A stretch of DNA of 63,987 nt, filler included, from Sandaracinaceae bacterium (GTDB lineage: Bacteria; Myxococcota_A; Polyangia; Polyangiales; JADJQN01): the NCBI GenBank assembly GCA_947483975.1. It is 8 parts of 8 records of this genome, joined end to end, with 100 filler letters (N's around TTAATTAATTAA, not from the genome) between each part and the next. Parts side by side here need not be neighbours in the genome. Positions count along the whole stretch, not along the records: positions 25,583 to 33,936 come from CANKOL010000238.1; 7 more parts are not named here. One strand, given 5' to 3'. The translations under genes were made by a program, and so were the position numbers. The notes below the pieces were generated by a model that was not told the DNA's origin, did no database searches, and saw only the letters and a list, made by a program, of their open reading frames with translations. Numbering within the stretch: position 1 is the first letter of the stretch; every line of letters begins with the position of its first letter. Positions 8,440 to 59,343 of this stretch are shown in pieces.

Positions 8440-8539
8440 NNNNNNNNNNNNNNNNNNNNNNNNNNNNNNNNNNNNNNNNNNNNTTAATTAATTAANNNNN
8501 NNNNNNNNNNNNNNNNNNNNNNNNNNNNNNNNNNNNNNN
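8440..8539. other. artificial contig-join spacer (N-run, TTAATTAATTAA, N-run); same spacer at 16965-17064, 25483-25582, 33937-34036, 42384-42483, 50821-50920, 59244-59343
   Basis: Identical 100-nt linker with stop codons in all six frames; inter-spacer contig lengths fall monotonically (8425, 8418, 8354, 8347, 8337, 8323). Confidence 0.98.
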
Positions 8540-16964: not shown

Positions 16965-17336
16965 NNNNNNNNNNNNNNNNNNNNNNNNNNNNNNNNNNNN
17001 NNNNNNNNTTAATTAATTAANNNNNNNNNNNNNNNNNNNNNNNNNNNNNNNNNNNNNNNNNNNNCCGCCGGGCCGAGCCAGGTGCGCAGCGCGCCCGCGA
17101 CGCGGGAGCGCCACAGCGAGTGTTGCGCGAACAGCTCCTCTGCGGAGGGATATCCGCGCGTGCTCACGCTCGTGGGCGCGGCGACGGAGCGCGTGTCCTG
17201 CCGGGCGGCGCGCAGCTCGGGAGAGCGAGACTTTCGACGTGTGTTGTTTGGGGCGCTCATGTCTCGAACTCCATTGTTGGGGCGCCGGTCGCGCCGGTCG
17301 CCAGTACCCGTGTGGCATCGACCCATCGAGGATGCT

Positions 17337-25482: not shown

Positions 25483-25695
25483 NNNNNNNNNNNNNNNNNN
25501 NNNNNNNNNNNNNNNNNNNNNNNNNNTTAATTAATTAANNNNNNNNNNNNNNNNNNNNNNNNNNNNNNNNNNNNNNNNNNNNACGAACCAGGCCAATCCC
25601 GACTGGTCGTGCTCGCCGTCCGGGGCGGCCCGCGAAGTCGCGGACCACGGCTGTAGAGGGTTTGGTGAGCGGGTGGTGTTTGCTCTGGGAGCGCG

Positions 25696-26125
25696 CTCAA
25701 GCACCTTCAGCGGATCGAGGGCGGGCAGAACCTCACGCTGCTCTCGCTGGAGCGCATCGCCTGGGCGCCGACCGGCGGCGGGGAGCTTCCTCGCGCGCAT
25801 CGTGGGGGCGGTGCTCGAGCCGAGCTTTCCCGACGGGGCGTGGGCGCTCTTTCGGACGCCCGCGTCGACTCCCCTGCTCGGGCACGTGGTGCTGCTGGCG
25901 CGCGGCGTGGGCGACGACGAGCGCGAGGCGTTCCTGCTGAAGAAGATCACCGCCGTGCGGCGCCTCCGAGGTGGGGGCTACTCCGTGACGCTCGCGTCCT
26001 TCAACCCCGCGTATCCGCCGTTCGACCTGCGCATCGCAGACCTGGCCGACCTGCGCGCCGTCGCCGACGTGGTTGGCCTCGTTGCGCAGAGCCGAGCGGC
26101 GCCGCGCTCGAACCAGACGCACTGA
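25696..26125 (+). pseudogene. degenerate XRE-HTH / S24 peptidase (CI/LexA-like) regulator
   Basis: One frame reads LKHLQRIEGGQNLTLLSLERIAWA (HTH_3 C-terminal half); another reads FLARIVGAVLEPSFPDGAWALFR...LLKK...LASFNPAY (S24-like). The frames do not join. Confidence 0.55.
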
Positions 26126-26211
26126 GAGTCGCCGGCTCTGCCTGGCGCGCGCGCCCCGCGAGCGTGCGACCCGCGCTGTTGGACGAGGCGACGTAGCCGG
26201 GCGCTCCGTGG

Positions 26212-26240
26212 TTGGCGCTCGATTCCCACCCGAGTATGAT
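26212..26240 (+). promoter_or_regulatory. putative sigma70 promoter of the TA operon (leaderless)
   Basis: TTGGCG-17 nt-TATGAT, ATG 6 nt downstream, no SD. Confidence 0.5.
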
Positions 26241-26246
26241 TCGGCG

Positions 26247-26513
26247 ATGCGCAGCCCCGCGAAGAAGCCGCCGGTCCCGCTTGTGCTCGCGTCGACGGTG
26301 ACGAAGCTTTCGGTCAGCGTGCCGGTGCAGCTGGCTGCGGACGTGAAGGCGTACACGGGCGGGCGGGGGCTCTCGGCCTTCGTGGCGCGCGCGTTGACGC
26401 ACGAGCTCGAGCGCGAGCGGCTCGCGGGCTACCTCGGCGAGCTGGATCGGAAGTTCGGGCCGGTGCCGGACGCTCTGCTCGACGAGACGCGGCGGGCATG
26501 GCGGGGGCGCTGA
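26247..26513 (+). CDS. VapB-like antitoxin (ribbon-helix-helix)
   Basis: TKLSVSVP..L..VK.....GLSAFVARAL..ELERERL..YL.ELD..FGPVP; overlaps the downstream PIN gene. Confidence 0.8.
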   Translation: MRSPAKKPPVPLVLASTVTKLSVSVPVQLAADVKAYTGGRGLSAFVARALTHELERERLAGYLGELDRKFGPVPDALLDETRRAWRGR

Positions 26514-26914
26514 TCCTCGACAGCGAGGCGCTGCACGCGCTGGCCTTCGCCGGCGAGCGGGCGGCGCTCGCGCGGCGTGCCCGGGCGGTCTTGCGGGTCG
26601 CGCTCGAGGAGAACGCCCTCGTGCGCGTGCCTGCGCCCGTCCTCGCGGAGGTCGCCCGCGGCCCGCGTCGAAGCGCCGCCGTTCAGCGGGTCGTACATGG
26701 CCGAGGCATCGAGGTCATCGCGCTCGATGCGTCGATGGCGAGAGCCGCCGGCGCGCTGCTCGAGAAAGCACAGCTCTCCTCGGCGCACGCCGTGGACGCG
26801 TTCGTCGTAGCGACCGCCATGGCCTTTGGCAGCGCGGTGATCGCGACCGGCGACCCGCGCGACCTCACGACCCTCGCGGCGGGCCAGCGACGCGTCCGAA
26901 TCCTGGCGCTGTAG
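26498..26914 (+). CDS. PIN-domain toxin (VapC-like)
   Basis: LILDSEAL, VLAEV, VDAFVVATA, TGDPRDL acidic motifs; 138 aa. Confidence 0.9.
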   Translation: MAGALILDSEALHALAFAGERAALARRARAVLRVALEENALVRVPAPVLAEVARGPRRSAAVQRVVHGRGIEVIALDASMARAAGALLEKAQLSSAHAVDAFVVATAMAFGSAVIATGDPRDLTTLAAGQRRVRILAL

Positions 26915-27191
26915 GACGCCCGTTCCCAATCACTATTGGCTCCCTCCTCGACGGTCAGCGCCACCGCCAAGCCACCGTTGAACTCCGTTTCGGGGTCGTC
27001 GCGACCCGCCAGCGGAGAGCGACCTCGGTCGGAACCGCGCGTCGTCCGTTCAACCCCCAAAACATCGAGAAAACGGGCGCGGCGGACTCCTCTCCCCAGC
27101 CCTCTCCTAGCAGGCGAGGGTACCTCGCGCAGCCCGTATGGCGAGGGTGAGGCGCGAGGGTGAGGTACACGCGCGCTTCACTTCTACCCCC

Positions 27192-27218
27192 AGGTGAGGC
27201 GCCTTCGGCGCCTCACCT
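27192..27218 (-). promoter_or_regulatory. perfect hairpin downstream of VR2 (DGR target-recognition hairpin and/or terminator)
   Basis: Minus strand AGGTGAGGCGCC-GAA-GGCGCCTCACCT: 12-bp stem, GAA triloop. Confidence 0.7.
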
Positions 27219-27234
27219 TCAAGACCAAAGACAA

Positions 27235-27263
27235 GTCAAAGGGTCAAAATGTCAAGTAGTCAA
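27235..27263. repeat. 8-nt periodic GTCAA tandem repeat downstream of VR2
   Basis: GTCAA at 27235, 27243, 27251, 27259. Confidence 0.85.
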
Positions 27264-27268
27264 CCCCG

Positions 27269-27379
27269 TCCCTAACGCACGCAGCGCGCGCGGTAGTTGA
27301 GCGTCACGTCGTTGAGGAACGCGGGGCCGACGCTGAAGTGGACGCCCCACCCGTAGGACGGCGAACCGGCAACAGAGGA
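27269..27379 (-). repeat. DGR variable repeat VR2
   Basis: Colinear with TR 29495-29605; 16 mismatches, all at TR adenines (coding strand). Confidence 0.97.
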
Positions 27380-27730
27380 TGACGACCAGAATTCCTCCAC
27401 CGGTGTGCTCGGGAAGTACGCCGTGTCGATCGCCGGAGCCGAGACCGTCTCATCCACGAGCGTCTGCAGCTCGGCGACGGTCGGCAGCCGCCAGCCGCCG
27501 CCGCTCGGCACGGTCAGCGTCGAGCAATACGTGGCGGACGCTGCCTGGCTCTGGGTCGAAGGCGAGAAGCCTTGCTGCCAGACCAGCCCCGTCAGGTTGT
27601 CGCGCACAGTGCCGTCTCCGACGTCGGTGAAGTGCCCCGCCGGCGCGGCGGCGCGCGCGCTCAGCGCGAGCATCCCGTGCGCTCCACAACCCACCACGAC
27701 GAGCACCACCGCCATCCTCCGCTTGTTCAT
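27272..27730 (-). CDS. DGR target protein 2: secreted DUF1566/Lcl-type (CLec fold) protein
   Basis: ATG overlaps the RT stop (ATGA), SD GGAGG; signal peptide; GDGTVRDNLTGLVWQ, WRLPTVAEL, FWSSS, RARCVR; VR2 at the C-terminus. Confidence 0.93.
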   Translation of the reverse strand: MNKRRMAVVLVVVGCGAHGMLALSARAAAPAGHFTDVGDGTVRDNLTGLVWQQGFSPSTQSQAASATYCSTLTVPSGGGWRLPTVAELQTLVDETVSAPAIDTAYFPSTPVEEFWSSSSVAGSPSYGWGVHFSVGPAFLNDVTLNYRARCVR

Positions 27731-29484
27731 GTCTCTGCCTCCGTGTTGGACTTGCTCACGCCGCGGACATCCGTCGGCGTTATTACCCATCTGAGCGTGC
27801 GAACCTTCACTGCGCCCGCCGCGCGGGGCTCTTCGAGCGCTATGCCCACGCGCAGCCCGCGCGCGACCAGCGAAGAGACGAGGCTCGCGGCGCGCCGCCA
27901 AGGGACGCCAGCCACTCGCCGCCGATCAACTCGCACGACCGTCAGCCCGGCGCGCTTGGCTTGGTGCAGCGGCACCTCCGCGAAGCGGCCGACCTTCAAC
28001 ACCAACACCGCACCTCGAAGCCCCTCGCTCAGCGTCCTTTGTTGAGAGACGAGCGACTCGTGTAGTCGCTCACGCCCGAAGCGACGCGTGCATAATCCCG
28101 CGCTGACCGAGACGAGCGCGGCCGCCGCGCCTGCATCCTGTGGGAGACGCTGCGAGAGCCGGTGCGCGTCGGCGTGACAAAAGTGCCCCTCGTAGCTCGC
28201 CCAGCTCGCGCGGACTTGCTCGGCGAGCCTGTGATCGACGAACAGGACCTGCGCGGACCCCCGCACACGACCAAGACCAGGCAGATGAAGCCGAGCGTTT
28301 GGGGCGAGGTCGTCTTGCCGCGCTCTCGCGGCGAAGCGCTGAAGCGCGTGTCGGCAGGCGAGCACGACGCGGCGTCTCGGCAATACGTAGTGAGGGCGGG
28401 TGATGTAGCCGACGAAGTCCACGCCGTCGGAGGCGGGTTTTAAACCCGCCCTCCACGATGAACCCAGGGCAGGTTTGAAACCTGCCACTACATCACGCGA
28501 TGAGCCATCACGGTCGAACACCACGGACAACGACGGACCCGTAGGGGCGGGTTTCAAACCCGCCCGCCTTACAGGGGAAACCTGACTATCACCCTCGGGC
28601 AAAAGGGGAGGCGCGGGCCGAGCGGGAGGCGGATGCACGGCGAGGTGCAAACTCTCTCGCAGAAAGTCCTCGATGCGGCCGCGCCACTCGGCGAGGCGGG
28701 CCGGATCGCGGTGGATGAGGATGAAGTCATCGACATAGCGAACATAGTGCTGGGCGCCGAGGCCGCGCTTGATGAAGAGGTCGAGGGGATGCAGGTAGAC
28801 GTTCGCGAAGAACTGGCTCGTCAGGTTTCCCACGGGGATGCCGAAGCCGGGGCCTTTGCCGCCGAGGCGCTTGTGTGGCGGGATTTTGCGCTGCAGGTGC
28901 TTGGGCGAGAGCTGCCGCGCGCCTTGGGTCGGATCATGCCGGACGACGACCTCGACGAGCTGCGCGACGCTGAGCGCGGAGGGGGCGGGATCGAGCAGCG
29001 GCAGTCCCCTCAAGGACGGTCGGAGGCGCGTCAACAAGATGCTCTTGTCGATGCTCGCGAAGAACGACTTGATGTCGAGCTGAAGCACGTACGCGCGCAC
29101 CTGGCCGTGCCGCGTGCAGGACCAGAGGGCGTCCTGCACGGCGGCCGCGGCGGCGTGCGTGCCCTTGCCTGCACGACACGCGAACGACGAAGGCAAGAAG
29201 CGACGCTCCCAGACAGGCTCGAGCAGGTCATGAAGCAGGTGGTGGACCACGCGATCTCGGTAGGCGGCGACGTGAACTTCTCGGTACTTCGGGCGCTCAG
29301 TAATGAACACCCGAGACGGCTCGGGGACGTAGGTCCCCGAGCGGATGCGCTGGGCGAGGCCAAGCAGCTCCTCGCCTTCCCGCAGGCGAAACGCGATCGC
29401 ATCCGCTCGCCCGCGCTTGCCCCGCGCACAGGAGCGCGCGGCAAGCTCGAGTCGAGACAGCAGCGTCGGCGCTCTCTCGCTCAC
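27727..29484 (-). CDS. DGR reverse transcriptase with C-terminal MutS-I-like extension
   Basis: RDRVVHH, LQLDIKSFFASID, GIPVGNLTSQFFANVYL (DGR-type SQ), YVRYVDD, GVDFVGY, SYEGHFCHAD; directly downstream of TR. Confidence 0.96.
   Translation of the reverse strand: MSERAPTLLSRLELAARSCARGKRGRADAIAFRLREGEELLGLAQRIRSGTYVPEPSRVFITERPKYREVHVAAYRDRVVHHLLHDLLEPVWERRFLPSSFACRAGKGTHAAAAAVQDALWSCTRHGQVRAYVLQLDIKSFFASIDKSILLTRLRPSLRGLPLLDPAPSALSVAQLVEVVVRHDPTQGARQLSPKHLQRKIPPHKRLGGKGPGFGIPVGNLTSQFFANVYLHPLDLFIKRGLGAQHYVRYVDDFILIHRDPARLAEWRGRIEDFLRESLHLAVHPPPARPAPPLLPEGDSQVSPVRRAGLKPAPTGPSLSVVFDRDGSSRDVVAGFKPALGSSWRAGLKPASDGVDFVGYITRPHYVLPRRRVVLACRHALQRFAARARQDDLAPNARLHLPGLGRVRGSAQVLFVDHRLAEQVRASWASYEGHFCHADAHRLSQRLPQDAGAAAALVSVSAGLCTRRFGRERLHESLVSQQRTLSEGLRGAVLVLKVGRFAEVPLHQAKRAGLTVVRVDRRRVAGVPWRRAASLVSSLVARGLRVGIALEEPRAAGAVKVRTLRWVITPTDVRGVSKSNTEAET
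28432..28565. repeat. cluster of three REP-like palindromes inside the RT gene
   Basis: GGCGGGTTT-T-AAACCCGCC (28432-28450), GGCAGGTTT-G-AAACCTGCC (28468-28486), GTAG-GGGCGGGTTT-C-AAACCCGCCC (28541-28565); each has a GTAG/GTGG foot on one strand. Confidence 0.85.
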
Positions 29485-29494
29485 GCTCGCCCCA

Positions 29495-29605
29495 TCCCTA
29501 ACGCACGCAGCGCGCGCGGTTGTTGTTCGTCACGTCGTTGTTGTTCGCGTTGCCGTTGTTGAAGTTGACGTTCCACCCGTTGGACGGCGAACCGGCAACA
29601 GAGGA
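29495..29605 (-). ncRNA. DGR template repeat (TR)
   Basis: Lies between avd and RT; 12 AAC codons (reads SNGWNVNFNNGNANNNDVTNNNRARCVR*); matches both VRs except at adenines (plus one 3-nt insertion in VR1). Confidence 0.97.
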
Positions 29606-29815
29606 CCTCTCGATCGAGCGCTTGCGCTCGGCCGCGGAAGGACTCGACGCGGGCTGCGCGAGGAGACGTCCTTGGCCGACTGCCCTCGTGGGCCGCCGAA
29701 GGGCGCGGCAGGCACGAGAGCGCCTTTGTATGCCTGCGGATGCCCGTCCGCAGGCGGCTCGATCGCACGGGGAGTCTGGCACACCCGAGCTCGAGGACGT
29801 GGGCTTGCGCCTGCG

Positions 29816-30196
29816 TCATCGGCTCGGCTCCGGCCGCTGCTGGTGCAGCTTGTTGTCGTGAGCACGCCACGCTTCCGCCTGCCGCGCGAAATTCACCACC
29901 TGCTCCATGACCTGCGCGTATTGCTGGAACGATGAGAACGCTTGCAGCTCCTTTCCGGTCTGAACGAGGAGCTTCAGCTCCTCTGTGCGGCCACAGAGCC
30001 GCGGGAGCGCCGCCACCCGAGTGGCCTTGGTGTTCGCGCGCTGTACCCACACGAGCGCGTCGAGCGACACCTCGCGCAAGCGCTGACCCAGCGTGTACTT
30101 GTGGTGCCGCGGAAAGACGCGCACGACCCGGTCGATGAGGACGACCGAGTCCATCGCAGCGCGGTAAATGGGGAGGCCTTCGTAGTAGCTGTTCAT
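29816..30196 (-). CDS. avd: DGR accessory variability determinant (Avd, four-helix bundle)
   Basis: 126 aa, LPIY...FPRHHKYTLGQRLR...EELKLL...RQAEAW; canonical position upstream of TR. Confidence 0.9.
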   Translation of the reverse strand: MNSYYEGLPIYRAAMDSVVLIDRVVRVFPRHHKYTLGQRLREVSLDALVWVQRANTKATRVAALPRLCGRTEELKLLVQTGKELQAFSSFQQYAQVMEQVVNFARQAEAWRAHDNKLHQQRPEPSR

Positions 30197-30197
30197 C

Positions 30198-30244
30198 GTC
30201 AGACGTCAGAAAGTTGTCGAAAGGTCAGAAGGTCGAGAAATCAA
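30198..30244. repeat. 8-nt periodic GTC(A/G) repeat between VR1 and avd
   Basis: Units at 30216, 30224, 30232, 30240 (last is ATCAA), plus GTCAGA at 30198 and 30205. Confidence 0.75.
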
Positions 30245-30249
30245 CCCCG

Positions 30250-30363
30250 TCCCTAACGCACGCAGCGCGCGCGGTGGCCGTCCGTCACGACGCTGCCGTT
30301 CGCGTAGCCGTAGTTGAAGGCGACGTACCACCCGAGGGACGGCGAACCGGCAACAGCAGAGGA
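30250..30363 (-). repeat. DGR variable repeat VR1
   Basis: Colinear with TR; 15 mismatches, all at TR adenines, plus one in-frame 3-nt insertion near the 5' boundary. Confidence 0.97.
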
Positions 30364-31590
30364 CGCGCTCCAGAACACCTCTCCCGGCGTCCCCGGAAAC
30401 GCCGTCACGCTGATCGTCGGCCCCGGATACGCCACGGCGTAGTCCACCAGCGTCACCAGTTCGATGCGCGACGGCAGCCGCCAGTCGGTGTAGCCCGCGA
30501 GCGTCAGCCCATCGCAGTACGCCACAGCGCCCGCCTGCGTGTAGGTGCCGGCATCGACAGCGCGCTGCCACTCCAGCCCGGTGACGCAGTCGATCACCGT
30601 CTCTGCGCCCGGTGCGCCGGTGACTTGATAGCTGAACGCGTGCCCGGACGTGCCGGGCATCGGGTACTGCGCCCAGCGCGTGTCGCCGCTGACGCGCGGG
30701 GCGCAGCGCGGTGGAACGCAGCCGACGAGGCCGTCATCGACGGTGCCATCGCAGTCATCATCGAGGCCGTTGCAGAGCTCGGTCGAAGGTGAGCCAGCGA
30801 CGACGCTGCAGGTGAGTGCACTCGCCGTGCAGACCTGCGTGCCGGTGCGCGCGCATGCGCCGACGCCGCTCGTACACGAGGCACCGCTATATACGCCACA
30901 GGCGCCGCAATTCAGCGGGTCGCTGGTGAGATCCGCACATTGCCCAGCACAACGAGTCGTGCCGGAGACGCACTCGCAGGTGCCTGAGACACAGGCCTCC
31001 CGCGTGCCGCATGCGGCGGTGGCGCCCTCATCGACGGTGCCGTCGCAGTCGTCGTCACGACCATTGCAAGCCTCAGCCGCGCCCAAGTAGACGCTCGCGT
31101 TGCTGTCGTCGCAGTCCGTTCCGCCGCAGACGCGCGGGGGATCGCCGTCGCCGTCGCCGTCGAGCGGTTGGTAGACGCAGACGCGGGCCGCAGGGTCGCA
31201 CCGCTCGTTCGTGGTGCAGGCGTTCGTGTCGGCGCAGTCGGGGTCACCCGCGCACGCGGCCCCCGCCACACAGTCATTGATCGGATCACAGCTCTGGCCC
31301 GTCCCGCAGAGCGCGGGCGTCGGGATGTGCCGACACACGCCGGTCGCGACCTCACACGTGTCCGTCGTGCAGTGGACGGCGTCGGCGCACCCTGCGCTGC
31401 TCGTGCAGCCAGGGGGGCCGAGGTCAAACGGCGTCGGACCGAGATCGACGGGCGGCGTGCGATCGGGGCCGCCACAGGCTGCGGTGGCGGCGGCGAGCAC
31501 GCAGATCAGCCGCCAGTACGCGAGCCGTAGCGAGCTGGACGTCATCGCTTCCCCCCATCGGATCCCCGCTACAACACAACCTCTCTTCAT
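30253..31590 (-). CDS. DGR target protein 1: Cys-rich lipoprotein with C-terminal DUF1566/Lcl-type domain
   Basis: Lipobox ATAAC; Cys-rich repeats incl. two CNG.DDDCDG (MopE-like) and DPLNCGACG; TVIDCVTGLEWQ, DWRLPSRIEL, RARCVR; start may be 31545. Confidence 0.93.
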   Translation of the reverse strand: MKRGCVVAGIRWGEAMTSSSLRLAYWRLICVLAAATAACGGPDRTPPVDLGPTPFDLGPPGCTSSAGCADAVHCTTDTCEVATGVCRHIPTPALCGTGQSCDPINDCVAGAACAGDPDCADTNACTTNERCDPAARVCVYQPLDGDGDGDPPRVCGGTDCDDSNASVYLGAAEACNGRDDDCDGTVDEGATAACGTREACVSGTCECVSGTTRCAGQCADLTSDPLNCGACGVYSGASCTSGVGACARTGTQVCTASALTCSVVAGSPSTELCNGLDDDCDGTVDDGLVGCVPPRCAPRVSGDTRWAQYPMPGTSGHAFSYQVTGAPGAETVIDCVTGLEWQRAVDAGTYTQAGAVAYCDGLTLAGYTDWRLPSRIELVTLVDYAVAYPGPTISVTAFPGTPGEVFWSASSAVAGSPSLGWYVAFNYGYANGSVVTDGHRARCVR

Positions 31591-31870
31591 GACTCTCCAT
31601 TTCTTGATCGGAGCTGCTCCGCGAGTTTGTTTTTGTGGTTCGCGTGCCTCTCGACAGCCAGAACACTACCATCCTGCGCGATGGTGCTCAATATGTATCG
31701 GATCCGCGCAGCTGCTCCGCGTCTCCGATCCGCGGGGCGCGGCTCCCAGGAGTCGGAGCGGCTCGTCAGGCTTGCGGCCGTAACCGTTCACGCCCCCCCA
31801 AAGCGTGATCATTCCGCGGGCCTCGAAGTTCACGATCGACAGTCGATCTCGAACGTGATCTACGTTCGTT

Positions 31871-33314
31871 GTGCAGCCCGCCTCCGAGATCGACGAGCTA
31901 CGCGCGATGCTCGCGGACCGCGATGCCACGAGCGCGCTGCAGGCGAAGACCATCGCGTCGCTGACGGCCAAGGTGGAGGCGCTCGAGACGCTGGTGAAGA
32001 GGCTGGCGGAGCAGCTGACGCGGACCTCCACCAACTCGAATCTTCCGCCGTCGAGACGGTCCGGGGGCCTCCTCGACGAACGCCAGCAAGAAGGCGGACA
32101 AGAAGGGTCGCAAGCGCGGCGCGCAGAAGGGGCACGCGGGCTCGCGTCGAGTGATGGTTCCGCCCGAACAGGTCGACGAGTGTGTGGATATGTTCCCGGC
32201 GCGTTGCGACGGCTGTCACGGTTCGCTGCCGAAGACCCCGGACTCGGACCCGAGGCGACAGCAGCACATCGAGCTCTCGCCCTTCGCCCCGCACGTCACG
32301 GAGTTCCGTCGTCACGAGGTGTGCTGCCCGAGCTGCGGTCACTGGACGCGCGCGCACTACGATGACGATGTCATCCCGCGGCACCTTTTTGGTCCGCGCG
32401 TCGCGGCTGTCACGGTGCTGCTGACAGGCGTGTACCACCTGAGCCGGCGCAGTGCCGCGAGCCTCTTGTACGAGATGCTCGGCCTACGCATCTCGACCGG
32501 GAGCATCAGCAACATCGAGCACCGGATGAGCCGTGCGGTGGAGCCGTCTGTGGATGAGGCGTGGAGCGAGGCCCAGGCTGCACCTGTCAAACACACCGAC
32601 GGCACGACGTGGCTTCATGTCGGAGTGATTCTCGCGCTATGGACCATCGCGACGGCAGGCGCGACGGTGTTCAAGATCCTCTCGAACGGTCAGGGCGACA
32701 CCCTCGAGCGTGAGCTGCTGACCTCGACGAAGGGCGTGCTTGTGAGCGACCGCGCATCGGTGCTGAAGTTCTGGGCGATGCACCGGCGTCAGATCTGCTG
32801 GGCCCATTTGCTCCGCAAATTCGTGTCCTTCACCGAGCGTGACGGGCCCACGCGGATTTTGGGGCGCGAGCTGCTCGACTGCACCCGAGTGATCTTCGCC
32901 TATTGGTACGACTTCAAAGAAGGTCGCGTCACGCGCGAGCAACTCGCCGCGCGCATCGCGCCCGTGCGCGTAGATTTCGAGCGCACGCTGCGCCGCGCGG
33001 TCGACGCCAACATCAAGGGCCTGAGCGGGTCGTGCTCGAATCTGTGGGAGCACCGCGAGGCGCTGTGGACCTTTGTGCAAGTCGATGACGTGGAGCCCAC
33101 GAACAACCACGCTGAGCGCGAACTGCGCGCCTTCGTGCTCTGGCGCAAGCGCTCCTTCGGAGCCCAGAGTGACCGTGGCCACCGCTTCGCCGAGCGCCTG
33201 ATGACCATCGCGCACACCGCGCGCAAGCAGGGGCGCGACGTGCTCGCCTTCCTGGTGGCCTGCGCCAGCCGCGCAGAGGACGACGCCGCGCCCTCGCTCT
33301 TCGCGACGGCGTGA
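31871..33314 (+). pseudogene. IS66 transposase TnpC, frameshifted near 32054
   Basis: Coiled coil + STNSNLPPS in one frame; DGPG...GAQKGH, Zn finger, KHTDGT, LVSDR, QICWAHLLRKF, EPTNNHAERELR in another. Confidence 0.85.
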
Positions 33315-33320
33315 CGGCCA

Positions 33321-33725
33321 CTACGCGGCAGCCCGAGCCATTGGGTAATAGCGCATCTGGCTACGCTCCCCGACGCTCCTGATCTGGCCCGTCTTCTTCA
33401 GCCGCGCAGCGGGCCGCTCGAGTCTCTTGGCGCTCAGTCCGAGGCCTGGCGCAAGGACCGCCATAGTCTCGCCCGGCGCGGACTCCACCGCCGAGAACAA
33501 GCGCGCGGCCAGCGCATCGAGCTCTTCCGTCGGCGGCCGCTGAGACGACGCGCGCCGCGCGGGCGCTGCCTTCGACTTCGCATCCTTACGCAGCGGCGAG
33601 CTGGGCCGTGCCTTCGAGAGCGTCCGGCCGAGCGCCTCTCGCAGCTGCGCCTCGTAGGCGGCAAGTTGCTGCTGAATCAGGGCCTCCACCGAGGCCTCCA
33701 GTGCGGTGATGTCGATCGCGGTCAT
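33321..33725 (-). CDS. IS-borne small DNA-binding protein (winged-helix-like)
   Basis: Inside the TIRs, convergent with the transposase; N-terminal helix, basic linker, PGETMAVLA..LGLS..RLERP..RL...GQIRSVGERSQMRYYP. Confidence 0.7.
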   Translation of the reverse strand: MTAIDITALEASVEALIQQQLAAYEAQLREALGRTLSKARPSSPLRKDAKSKAAPARRASSQRPPTEELDALAARLFSAVESAPGETMAVLAPGLGLSAKRLERPAARLKKTGQIRSVGERSQMRYYPMARAAA

Positions 33726-34036
33726 GCGAGTTGAATCGCATCGCCGGCGCCGCCCTGCAAAGGGGGGCGTGAACGGTTACCTCTCCCCAGGGCAATCGCA
33801 TCAAAAACGTCGTGACTCCTGCGCACGAGACTTGAACATGGCCAGTCGTCACGGGGTGGCTGTCAGCACGCGAAGAAGGAAGTCGTCATCCCAGCCGGCG
33901 ATCATGCGTCTTGTCTTCACGCCAACCTTGCTGCCTNNNNNNNNNNNNNNNNNNNNNNNNNNNNNNNNNNNNNNNNNNNNTTAATTAATTAANNNNNNNN
34001 NNNNNNNNNNNNNNNNNNNNNNNNNNNNNNNNNNNN

Positions 34037-42383: not shown

Positions 42384-42483
42384 NNNNNNNNNNNNNNNNN
42401 NNNNNNNNNNNNNNNNNNNNNNNNNNNTTAATTAATTAANNNNNNNNNNNNNNNNNNNNNNNNNNNNNNNNNNNNNNNNNNNN

Positions 42484-50612: not shown

Positions 50613-50920
50613 CGTTCCTCGGTGCCTGGAGCAGCGATTGCCACCTTGAGCCGCGCCGCTGCGGCGGTGCGGCTAGCCTACGCGCCGCGAGCGCTCGTAT
50701 TCGCAAGCGCGACACCTCGCGCGGTCGCCGCCCTGGCGCTGCTCCTCGGCGCCGCGTGCGCAGGCGGCGACAGCGCGCCGACGATTCCCGTGGTGAGCGA
50801 GCCGCCGCCCGTCACGCCGANNNNNNNNNNNNNNNNNNNNNNNNNNNNNNNNNNNNNNNNNNNNTTAATTAATTAANNNNNNNNNNNNNNNNNNNNNNNN
50901 NNNNNNNNNNNNNNNNNNNN

Positions 50921-59243: not shown

Positions 59244-59343
59244 NNNNNNNNNNNNNNNNNNNNNNNNNNNNNNNNNNNNNNNNNNNNTTAATTAATTAAN
59301 NNNNNNNNNNNNNNNNNNNNNNNNNNNNNNNNNNNNNNNNNNN

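Follow-up and report, generated by a model that had tools for sequence, protein, structure and literature searches.

A reverse transcriptase with a diverged MutS domain I-like module at its C-terminus in a diversity-generating retroelement of a Sandaracinaceae bacterium

The stretch of DNA analysed here, referred to below as the window, comprises 63,987 nucleotides of Sandaracinaceae bacterium (assembly GCA_947483975.1) and consists of contigs of ~8.4 kb chained by runs of N. On the piece at 25583-33936 (contig C238, CANKOL010000238.1) lies a diversity-generating retroelement (DGR), and the last ~110 ordered residues of its reverse transcriptase (RT) are, with little room for doubt, a true but diverged MutS domain I, the module known elsewhere from separate MutS-like (Msl) accessory proteins of DGRs, fused behind the thumb. 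Fusions of this type are already known; for the window RT the analysis mostly confirms an architecture that is rare but on record, and the present copy is a new, more diverged member from the Myxococcota. The finding bears on two questions: by what route the complementary DNA (cDNA) of a DGR enters its target gene, and how a heteroduplex with at least a dozen mismatches is spared by mismatch repair. Among the DGR accessory factors, Msl is the one about which least is known; the fused form places the action of the module at the RT itself and provides a one-polypeptide system for probing its role.

A preliminary description of this DNA, made from the sequence alone, had proposed that the RT runs on past its thumb into a MutS domain I-like module at 27770-28065, which corresponds to RT residues ~474-572. 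The strings it quoted (SYEGHFCHAD, VGRFAEV and VAGVPWRRAASLVSSLVARGLRVGIALE) are all present in the RT protein, and module and RT indeed form one continuous frame of 585 residues. The match to the Pfam model MutS_I (PF01624) falls short of the gathering cut-off of 20.6 bits, with 14.2 bits for the whole protein and 18.2 bits (E 0.0029, profile positions 9-107 of 113) for the isolated C-terminus. Among NCBIfam MutS models, PRK05399 is matched at E 4.5e-4 and another at E 3.5e-3. A profile built from 17 family members and run against the sequences of the PDB finds residues 10-118 of Taq MutS at E 1.2e-7, with the family string qVGryaE lying over QVGDFYE, and 22 of the 24 PDB sequences reached at E<=1 are MutS or Msh3. 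The MutS signal requires such a profile, since a single-sequence phmmer search of the C-terminus against the PDB sequences returned only chance matches at E 0.2-1, namely a dUTPase and the light chain of an antibody. A word-indexed search of 5.8 billion proteins likewise gave nothing beyond the RT protein itself, and a single-protein search of the genomes of 60 relatives gave only weak matches at E ~1e-3, the best inspected of which (L006) is not an RT.

The predicted structure leads to the same family. An AlphaFold2 (AF2) model of the 147-residue C-terminal piece has a predicted local distance difference test score (pLDDT) above 90 over its residues 40-130. Searched with Foldseek, this domain model finds, among the matches listed, only chains of MutS, MutS-alpha or MutS-beta. 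An independent VIA-align scan against 48,161 chains returned four matches at Z>=8, all MutS or MSH: MSH3 (Z 12.1), Taq MutS 1fw6_A (Z 11.4, root-mean-square deviation 2.7 A over 96 residues) and two more at Z 10.3 and 10.0, while the next fold reaches only Z 5.3. The profile and structure comparison with MutS domain I that the preliminary description had called for was therefore positive. Aligned with domain I of Taq MutS (1EWQ/1FW6), E. coli MutS and human MSH3 and MSH6, the module shares 20-25% identity and keeps G-x-F-x-E, G499-R-F501-A-E503 lying opposite the GDFYE that holds the Phe-x-Glu mismatch motif of MutS; the retention of F-x-E as FAE, also claimed earlier, is thus borne out. The module is strongly basic, with a calculated isoelectric point (pI) of 12.0 and 23 Arg or Lys in 110 residues. 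Whereas full MutS has connector, lever, clamp and ATPase domains, the window RT lacks them: the protein ends 10 residues past the module, and a Pfam scan recognises RVT_1 and the MutS_I-like stretch only, with none of MutS domains II-V, the ABC ATPase included. It follows that the RT carries no canonical repair-signalling MutS. Chance read-through of a high-GC frame (the DNA is ~70% GC) was considered and rejected, the extension being conserved and confidently folded.

That conservation, on which the preliminary description had made its reading depend, is seen in the closest RT homologues. An exhaustive phmmer search of 1.84 billion representative sequences yielded 21 proteins at E<=1e-3, the cluster of the query included. 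Apart from one unrelated repetitive protein (P0017), the non-self matches, 19 of 20, carry the same extension, either as full-length RTs or as fragments that start in the RT or in its thumb motif. Identity to relatives is 29-46% in the module and 41-55% over the whole RT. One could suppose that an old fusion is decaying here and that the extension no longer has a function; the score under the Pfam cut-off, the absence of Phe-x-Glu from some family members, the repeat-derived insert borne by the RT itself and the fact that five of the eight fused relatives scanned give no MutS_I match at E<=0.1 would all agree with decay. Such a remnant is highly improbable, however, in view of the open frame, the fold predicted at pLDDT above 90, the level of identity just given, a glycine that is invariant across the family and the retention of the module in at least five phyla.

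To survey RT-MutS_I fusions, as the preliminary description had also suggested, a family alignment of whole RTs was run against species-representative genomes; of 604 matching stretches, 481 encode relatives, and the best 80 loci were kept. Iterated searches with a profile of the module alone settled at 16 domains, spread over 13 of the 80 loci. The module is fused to the C-terminus of the RT in nine loci, with two copies in L024, and forms a separate small open reading frame (ORF) in three; the remaining hit (L026) is a real mutS gene. The fused loci come from Myxococcota (L012, L013, L014 and L050), Desulfobacterota (L022 and L024), Caldithrix (L015), Acidobacteria (L069) and Porticoccaceae (L058), that is from at least five phyla, and wherever the module is fused it is C-terminal. 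The separate ORF stands just upstream of Avd in Magnetococcus (L016) and Anaerolineae (L071) and directly after the RT in Burkholderiales (L025). These separate ORFs pass the Pfam MutS_I cut-off with 55.2, 50.5 and 33.8 bits for L016, L071 and L025, respectively. Fused modules, scanned in eight relatives with L058 left out, pass it only twice, in the two Desulfobacterota (L024 with 35.2 bits and L022 with 34.9 bits); L069 reaches 17.7 bits, and L012, L013, L014, L050 and L015 give no match at E<=0.1. RT-MutS_I fusions are accordingly under-annotated. Compared by hhalign, the myxobacterial family and the separate Msl-type ORFs are homologous (97.6% probability, E 3.9e-12). An Avd-like ORF occurs at eight of the nine fused loci in the same position as in the window, and the ninth locus starts 311 nt from a contig end; the order target-Avd-RT-target is common to L012, L014 and L050.

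In a quick, unrooted maximum-likelihood tree of 76 RT bodies, from which five loci with matches shorter than 250 aa were left out, the window RT falls in a clade of five Myxococcota rows with 100% support, and all five are fused. All Msl-bearing rows lie within a half of 51 rows, and none in the half of 25 rows that holds elements of the candidate phyla radiation (CPR). Because the tree is unrooted and a three-state label needs six changes on it, a single ancient fusion with subsequent losses and several independent fusions are indistinguishable.

The family profile was also run against 400 other genomes of the phylum. In ~95 of them it finds, through the module part alone, frames of ~850-1100 aa that are taken from their length to be mutS genes, and at L099-L101 and L103 from the downstream sequence as well. 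Matches that also cover the thumb motif were found at 11 places in eight genomes, among which L098 was not recovered by the module-only profile and G194 is uninspected; one further member of the 11 (G412/L102) continues like MutS on inspection and was removed from the RT count.

Several loci of the survey deserve a separate remark. A Desulfobacteraceae contig carries, within 4 kb, two RT-Msl C-termini that are almost the same (L024:1-855 and L024:3950-5425), which implies two adjacent DGRs. The RTs that stand beside separate Msl ORFs in Magnetococcus (RT L016:3818-5473, Msl L016:2877-3212) and Anaerolineae (RT L071:1262-3031, Msl L071:1-417) still match the start of the Msl profile (its first ~35 positions) at their own C-terminus; this match could be a remnant of the module or its N-terminal helix only. 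The Burkholderiales Msl ORF (L025:4990-5505) overlaps the end of the RT in another frame, as either a split form or a frameshift. Aquitalea magnusonii has a real mutS (MutS_I 150 bits, plus MutS_II) ~4 kb downstream of a DGR RT (L026:7985-8782), a proximity that is probably coincidental.

The preliminary description overstated matters in one respect, namely the implied novelty of the fusion. According to the available portions of Wu et al. 2018 (NAR 46:11, PMC5758913), ~20% of DGR RTs carry C-terminal extensions, and in three related RTs these have weak identity to MutS_I; Supplementary Table S1 names two of them, Ca. Magnetobacterium bavaricum FP929063.1 and uncultured Desulfobacterium FR695874.1. 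As far as that source goes, the latter has the same architecture as the window (TG-AVD-TR-RT-TG, with two DUF1566/Lcl_C targets and a MutS_I-like extension of the RT), so the fusion is not new. The Desulfobacterota loci of the present survey, L022 and L024, have the same fused module as the window RT. The module of the Myxococcota clade is more diverged, the window copy scoring below the Pfam cut-off and L012, L013, L014 and L050 escaping the model altogether. The same portions of Wu et al. describe the Msl accessory family from 16 DGRs, always with avd and never with HRDC, and propose that Msl and the MutS_I-like extensions are linked to mismatch repair. The element agrees with the family in having a homologous module within the DGR cassette together with Avd, as the preliminary description had noted; three HRDC matches occur in the genome, on contigs C40 and C164, and none on the DGR contig C238. 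It differs in form: the Msl proteins described there stand alone, measure 112-283 aa and have an average pI of 7.2 +/- 1.7, whereas the window module is part of a 585-aa frame and has the far higher pI given above.

The preferred reading of its function, to which a probability of roughly 40 to 45% is assigned, is that the module may serve as a cis-tethered binder of mismatches or heteroduplex that keeps host MutS and MutL off the heteroduplex formed in retrohoming. RT and Avd would copy the RNA of the template repeat (TR) into adenine-mutagenised cDNA, which would pair with the parental strand of the variable repeat (VR) in either Lcl_C target gene and so form a mismatch-dense cDNA:VR heteroduplex. 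The tethered module would then insert its F501/E503 wedge, aided by a very basic surface, and occupy the mismatches. As it lacks the connector, clamp and ATPase domains of MutS, the module cannot signal to MutL and would compete with host MutS, whereby all-or-nothing reversion to the parental sequence may be avoided and the new VR fixed. The host genome has its own MutS (contig C2, 139.6 bits) and a MutL-type gene (95.4 bits). Shielding of the heteroduplex is plausible since host mutS lowers DGR retrohoming in Bacteroides: in the accessible text of bioRxiv 10.1101/2024.11.15.621889, deletion of mutS raised retrohoming 5-10 fold in an all-or-nothing manner with the mutation pattern unchanged, and Msl is named among the accessory factors. 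A 2026 preprint, in its available part, recalls that mismatch repair had been implicated earlier because of MutS-like homologues.

A number of observations weigh against this reading. In the family alignment of 27 sequences, in which the MutS of Aquitalea (L026) was included as a control, the glycine of GxFxE is present in all 27; 19 have an aromatic residue at the Phe position, 22 have Glu, and 16 have both. The window RT keeps both Phe and Glu, but 11 of the 27 are without one or both; Gln replaces Glu in two separate Msl proteins (L016 and L071), and both residues are missing from two fused ones (L014 and L058). No Msl module is detectable in 68 of the 80 related DGR-RT loci. Full MutS holds DNA mainly through its other domains, and a lone domain I may bind weakly. 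Nor does mismatch repair always limit retrohoming, given that the DGR of a Bordetella phage is independent of mutS in the available portions of Wu et al. 2018 (PMC5758913), and that mutS was without effect in one E. coli reconstitution with an insertion-repair assay, as reported in the accessible part of PMC12875486. A literature search found no experimental test of an Msl protein or of an RT-MutS_I fusion. Lastly, the module is predicted to be docked rigidly on the RT (predicted TM score, pTM, 0.82 for the full-length model), an arrangement that would fit a role in cDNA synthesis equally well.

The last point leads to an unlikely alternative, in which the module acts during reverse transcription. 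Placed on the emerging hybrid of TR RNA and cDNA or on the primer-template, it would make mispaired (A:N) termini more stable or synthesis more processive, in effect a general basic nucleic-acid clamp fixed behind the thumb. Direct fusion after the thumb through an ordered linker in a confident model (pLDDT 88.3, pTM 0.82), the high content of Arg and Lys and the invariably C-terminal position of fused modules all suit such a role. The basic character may, on the other hand, simply follow from the GC content of the DNA as far as Arg is concerned. Most DGR RTs, including the well-studied RT of Bordetella phage (bRT, 328 aa), whose match (8ub7) extends over the RT body only, carry out adenine mutagenesis without any such module. 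Moreover, the module occurs as a separate small gene in L016, L071 and L025 and in the Msl family described in the accessible part of Wu et al. 2018 (PMC5758913), which indicates that the module need not be tethered at the exit channel.

A further alternative turns on the tails of some relatives. Among 28 fused RT C-termini, eight carry Q..[LW]PG?F or QL.[LF]F within the last 70 residues, in the forms QLxLPGF, QxLLPF or QLDFF (P0004; P0006, with the same tail as L092; P0012; P0014; P0018, with the same RT as L013; L014; L096; and L097). The pattern, which was defined after the motif had been noticed, occurs zero times in the protein bodies and zero times in reversed sequences. These tails resemble the bacterial consensus for binding the beta sliding clamp, QL[SD]LF or QLSLPL. 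Prokaryotic RTs offer a precedent in the intron-encoded protein (IEP) of the group II intron RmInt1, an RT said to bind the beta sliding clamp in work of Garcia-Rodriguez et al. from 2019, which is known by title alone. Fused module and tail could on this basis be parts of a device through which the RT-cDNA complex is drawn to repair factors or the replisome (the beta clamp, perhaps MutL), so that the cDNA would be annealed at the fork. A complex model of the P0018/L013 tail with the DnaN of its own genome supports binding: it scores 0.63 against 0.38 for the best of three controls, a mark attained by 51 of the 78 solved complexes and by 2 of the 108 mismatched pairs; its runs share at least 63% of contacts, partner pLDDT is at least 44, and the interface comprises tail residues 493-504. 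This pass may reflect mere likeness, since clamp-peptide complexes have already been solved. DGR efficiency in E. coli does depend on the direction of replication, according to the available part of PMC12875486. As an account of the module, recruitment is nevertheless distinctly improbable: the window RT, unlike the eight tailed relatives, has no clamp-like motif, 20 of the 28 fused proteins are without it, and it sits in a disordered tail outside the MutS fold and leaves the module itself unexplained. No link between a DGR RT and the sliding clamp was found in the literature, the pairing appearing in no title or abstract and co-mentions having been checked in part.

The clamp-motif tail of the relatives remains a lead tying DGRs to replication, and it can be joined to the shielding of the heteroduplex by the module. 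In this combined and doubtful form, the RT-tethered MutS domain I would be a decoy in cis that marks the heteroduplex as not to be repaired, to which about a quarter of fused RTs would add a beta-clamp-binding tail. If both parts were true, the RT-cDNA complex would be kept at the replication fork, the place at which the cDNA enters the target, and the sensitivity to MutS, the Msl accessory genes and the bias for replication direction would be physically linked.

Turning to the remainder of the RT, its body is of DGR type as judged by the RVT_1 match, by relatives found through the RT family alignment and by bRT of Bordetella phage being its best match in the PDB, both by profile (8ub7, 5.8e-17) and by Foldseek (8ub7_A, E 8.5e-19, TMt 0.80). 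The system shares with BPP-1 bRT-Avd (PDB 8UB7 series) the RT body, Avd, the TR and VR and the adenine-specific differences; bRT ends after the thumb and has no counterpart of the 58-aa disordered insert, the linker and the MutS-like module of the window RT. In the full-length model, the linker joins thumb and MutS-like domain in an ordered manner, and disorder is confined to the first four residues, residues 301-344 (pLDDT below 50) and the last ten residues.

The genes of the element, all on the minus strand, are arranged in the order target gene 1, Avd, TR, RT, target gene 2 (Table 1); since the window chains separate contigs, genes on opposite sides of an N join are not neighbours. The TR aligns with the 3' end of each target gene. 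In the 113 nt compared, which include 28 TR adenines, VR1 differs from the TR at 15 adenines and two other positions, and VR2 at 16 adenines and one other position. Target gene 1 matches Lcl_C (4.9e-25) and Cu-binding_MopE (9.1e-13) in Pfam. Judged from its sequence, the element looks like a complete classical DGR with two targets and appears intact.

Table 1. Coordinates of the joins in the window and of the features of the DGR and its RT.
Feature	Position in window	Strand	Description or basis
N joins	8440-8539, 16965-17064, 25483-25582, 33937-34036, 42384-42483, 50821-50920, 59244-59343		
Target gene 1, 445 aa	30253..31590	(-)	MopE-like Cys repeats and a C-terminal C-type-lectin-like Lcl_C/DUF1566 domain carrying VR1
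VR1 with 3' flank (GGGACGGGG, resembling the initiation of mutagenic homing element, IMH)	30216..30365	(-)	Repeat family, alignment to TR
Avd accessory gene, 126 aa	29816..30196	(-)	Pfam bAvd E 4.6e-8, 34 bits (cut-off of 40 bits not reached)
TR	~29461..29610	(-)	Repeat family and alignment; 3' end overlaps RT start
RT ORF, 585 aa	27727..29484	(-)	Pfam RVT_1 E 3.3e-12
RT body, residues 1-438 (fingers, palm, thumb)	28171..29484	(-)	Motifs GNLTSQFFANVYL and YVRYVDDF; thumb end SYEGHFCHAD
In-frame insert in RT, ~58 aa	28435..28608	(-)	Three palindromic units (GGCGGGTTTNAAACCCGCC); predicted disordered
Ordered linker, residues 439-465 (helix and beta hairpin)	28090..28170	(-)	pLDDT >90 in full-length model
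MutS domain I-like (Msl-type) module, residues 466-575	27760..28089	(-)	Profiles, AF2 fold, structure searches
G499-R-F501-A-E503, aligned with MutS GDFYE (Phe-x-Glu mismatch motif)	27976..27990	(-)	Alignment
Target gene 2, 152 aa from ATG at 27730	27272..27730	(-)	Pfam Lcl_C 3.6e-27; signal-peptide-like N-terminus
VR2 with 3' flank	27235..27384	(-)	Repeat family, alignment to TR

The RT and target gene 2 meet in the tetranucleotide ATGA (27727-27730), where the stop codon TGA of the former and the start codon ATG of the latter overlap; this arrangement suggests that translation of the RT and of the second variable protein is coupled. One flank of the DGR holds a VapC-like PIN-domain gene with a small upstream ORF (26498-26914 and 26073-26513, both plus strand). 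On the other flank lies an IS66-family transposase (32151-33314 and 31871-32365, both plus strand), the N-terminal part of which (DUF6444, weak) is in a separate frame. The survey of the phylum with the family profile did not find the RT-Msl module in a genome of the same genus, and the DGR region may therefore be mobile or accessory.

The insert in the RT body sits between motif 7 and the GVDFVGY entry to the thumb, and homologues are without it. Its palindromes, at 28432-28454, 28468-28490 and 28546-28568, are translated as RAGLKPA or AGFKPA, and the same palindrome, of the GGCGGGTTTNAAACCCGCC type, is found at three further sites of the genome, on C192, C330 and C375. From this repetition the insert looks like a small element resembling repetitive extragenic palindromes (REP) or miniature inverted-repeat transposable elements (MITE) that landed in frame.

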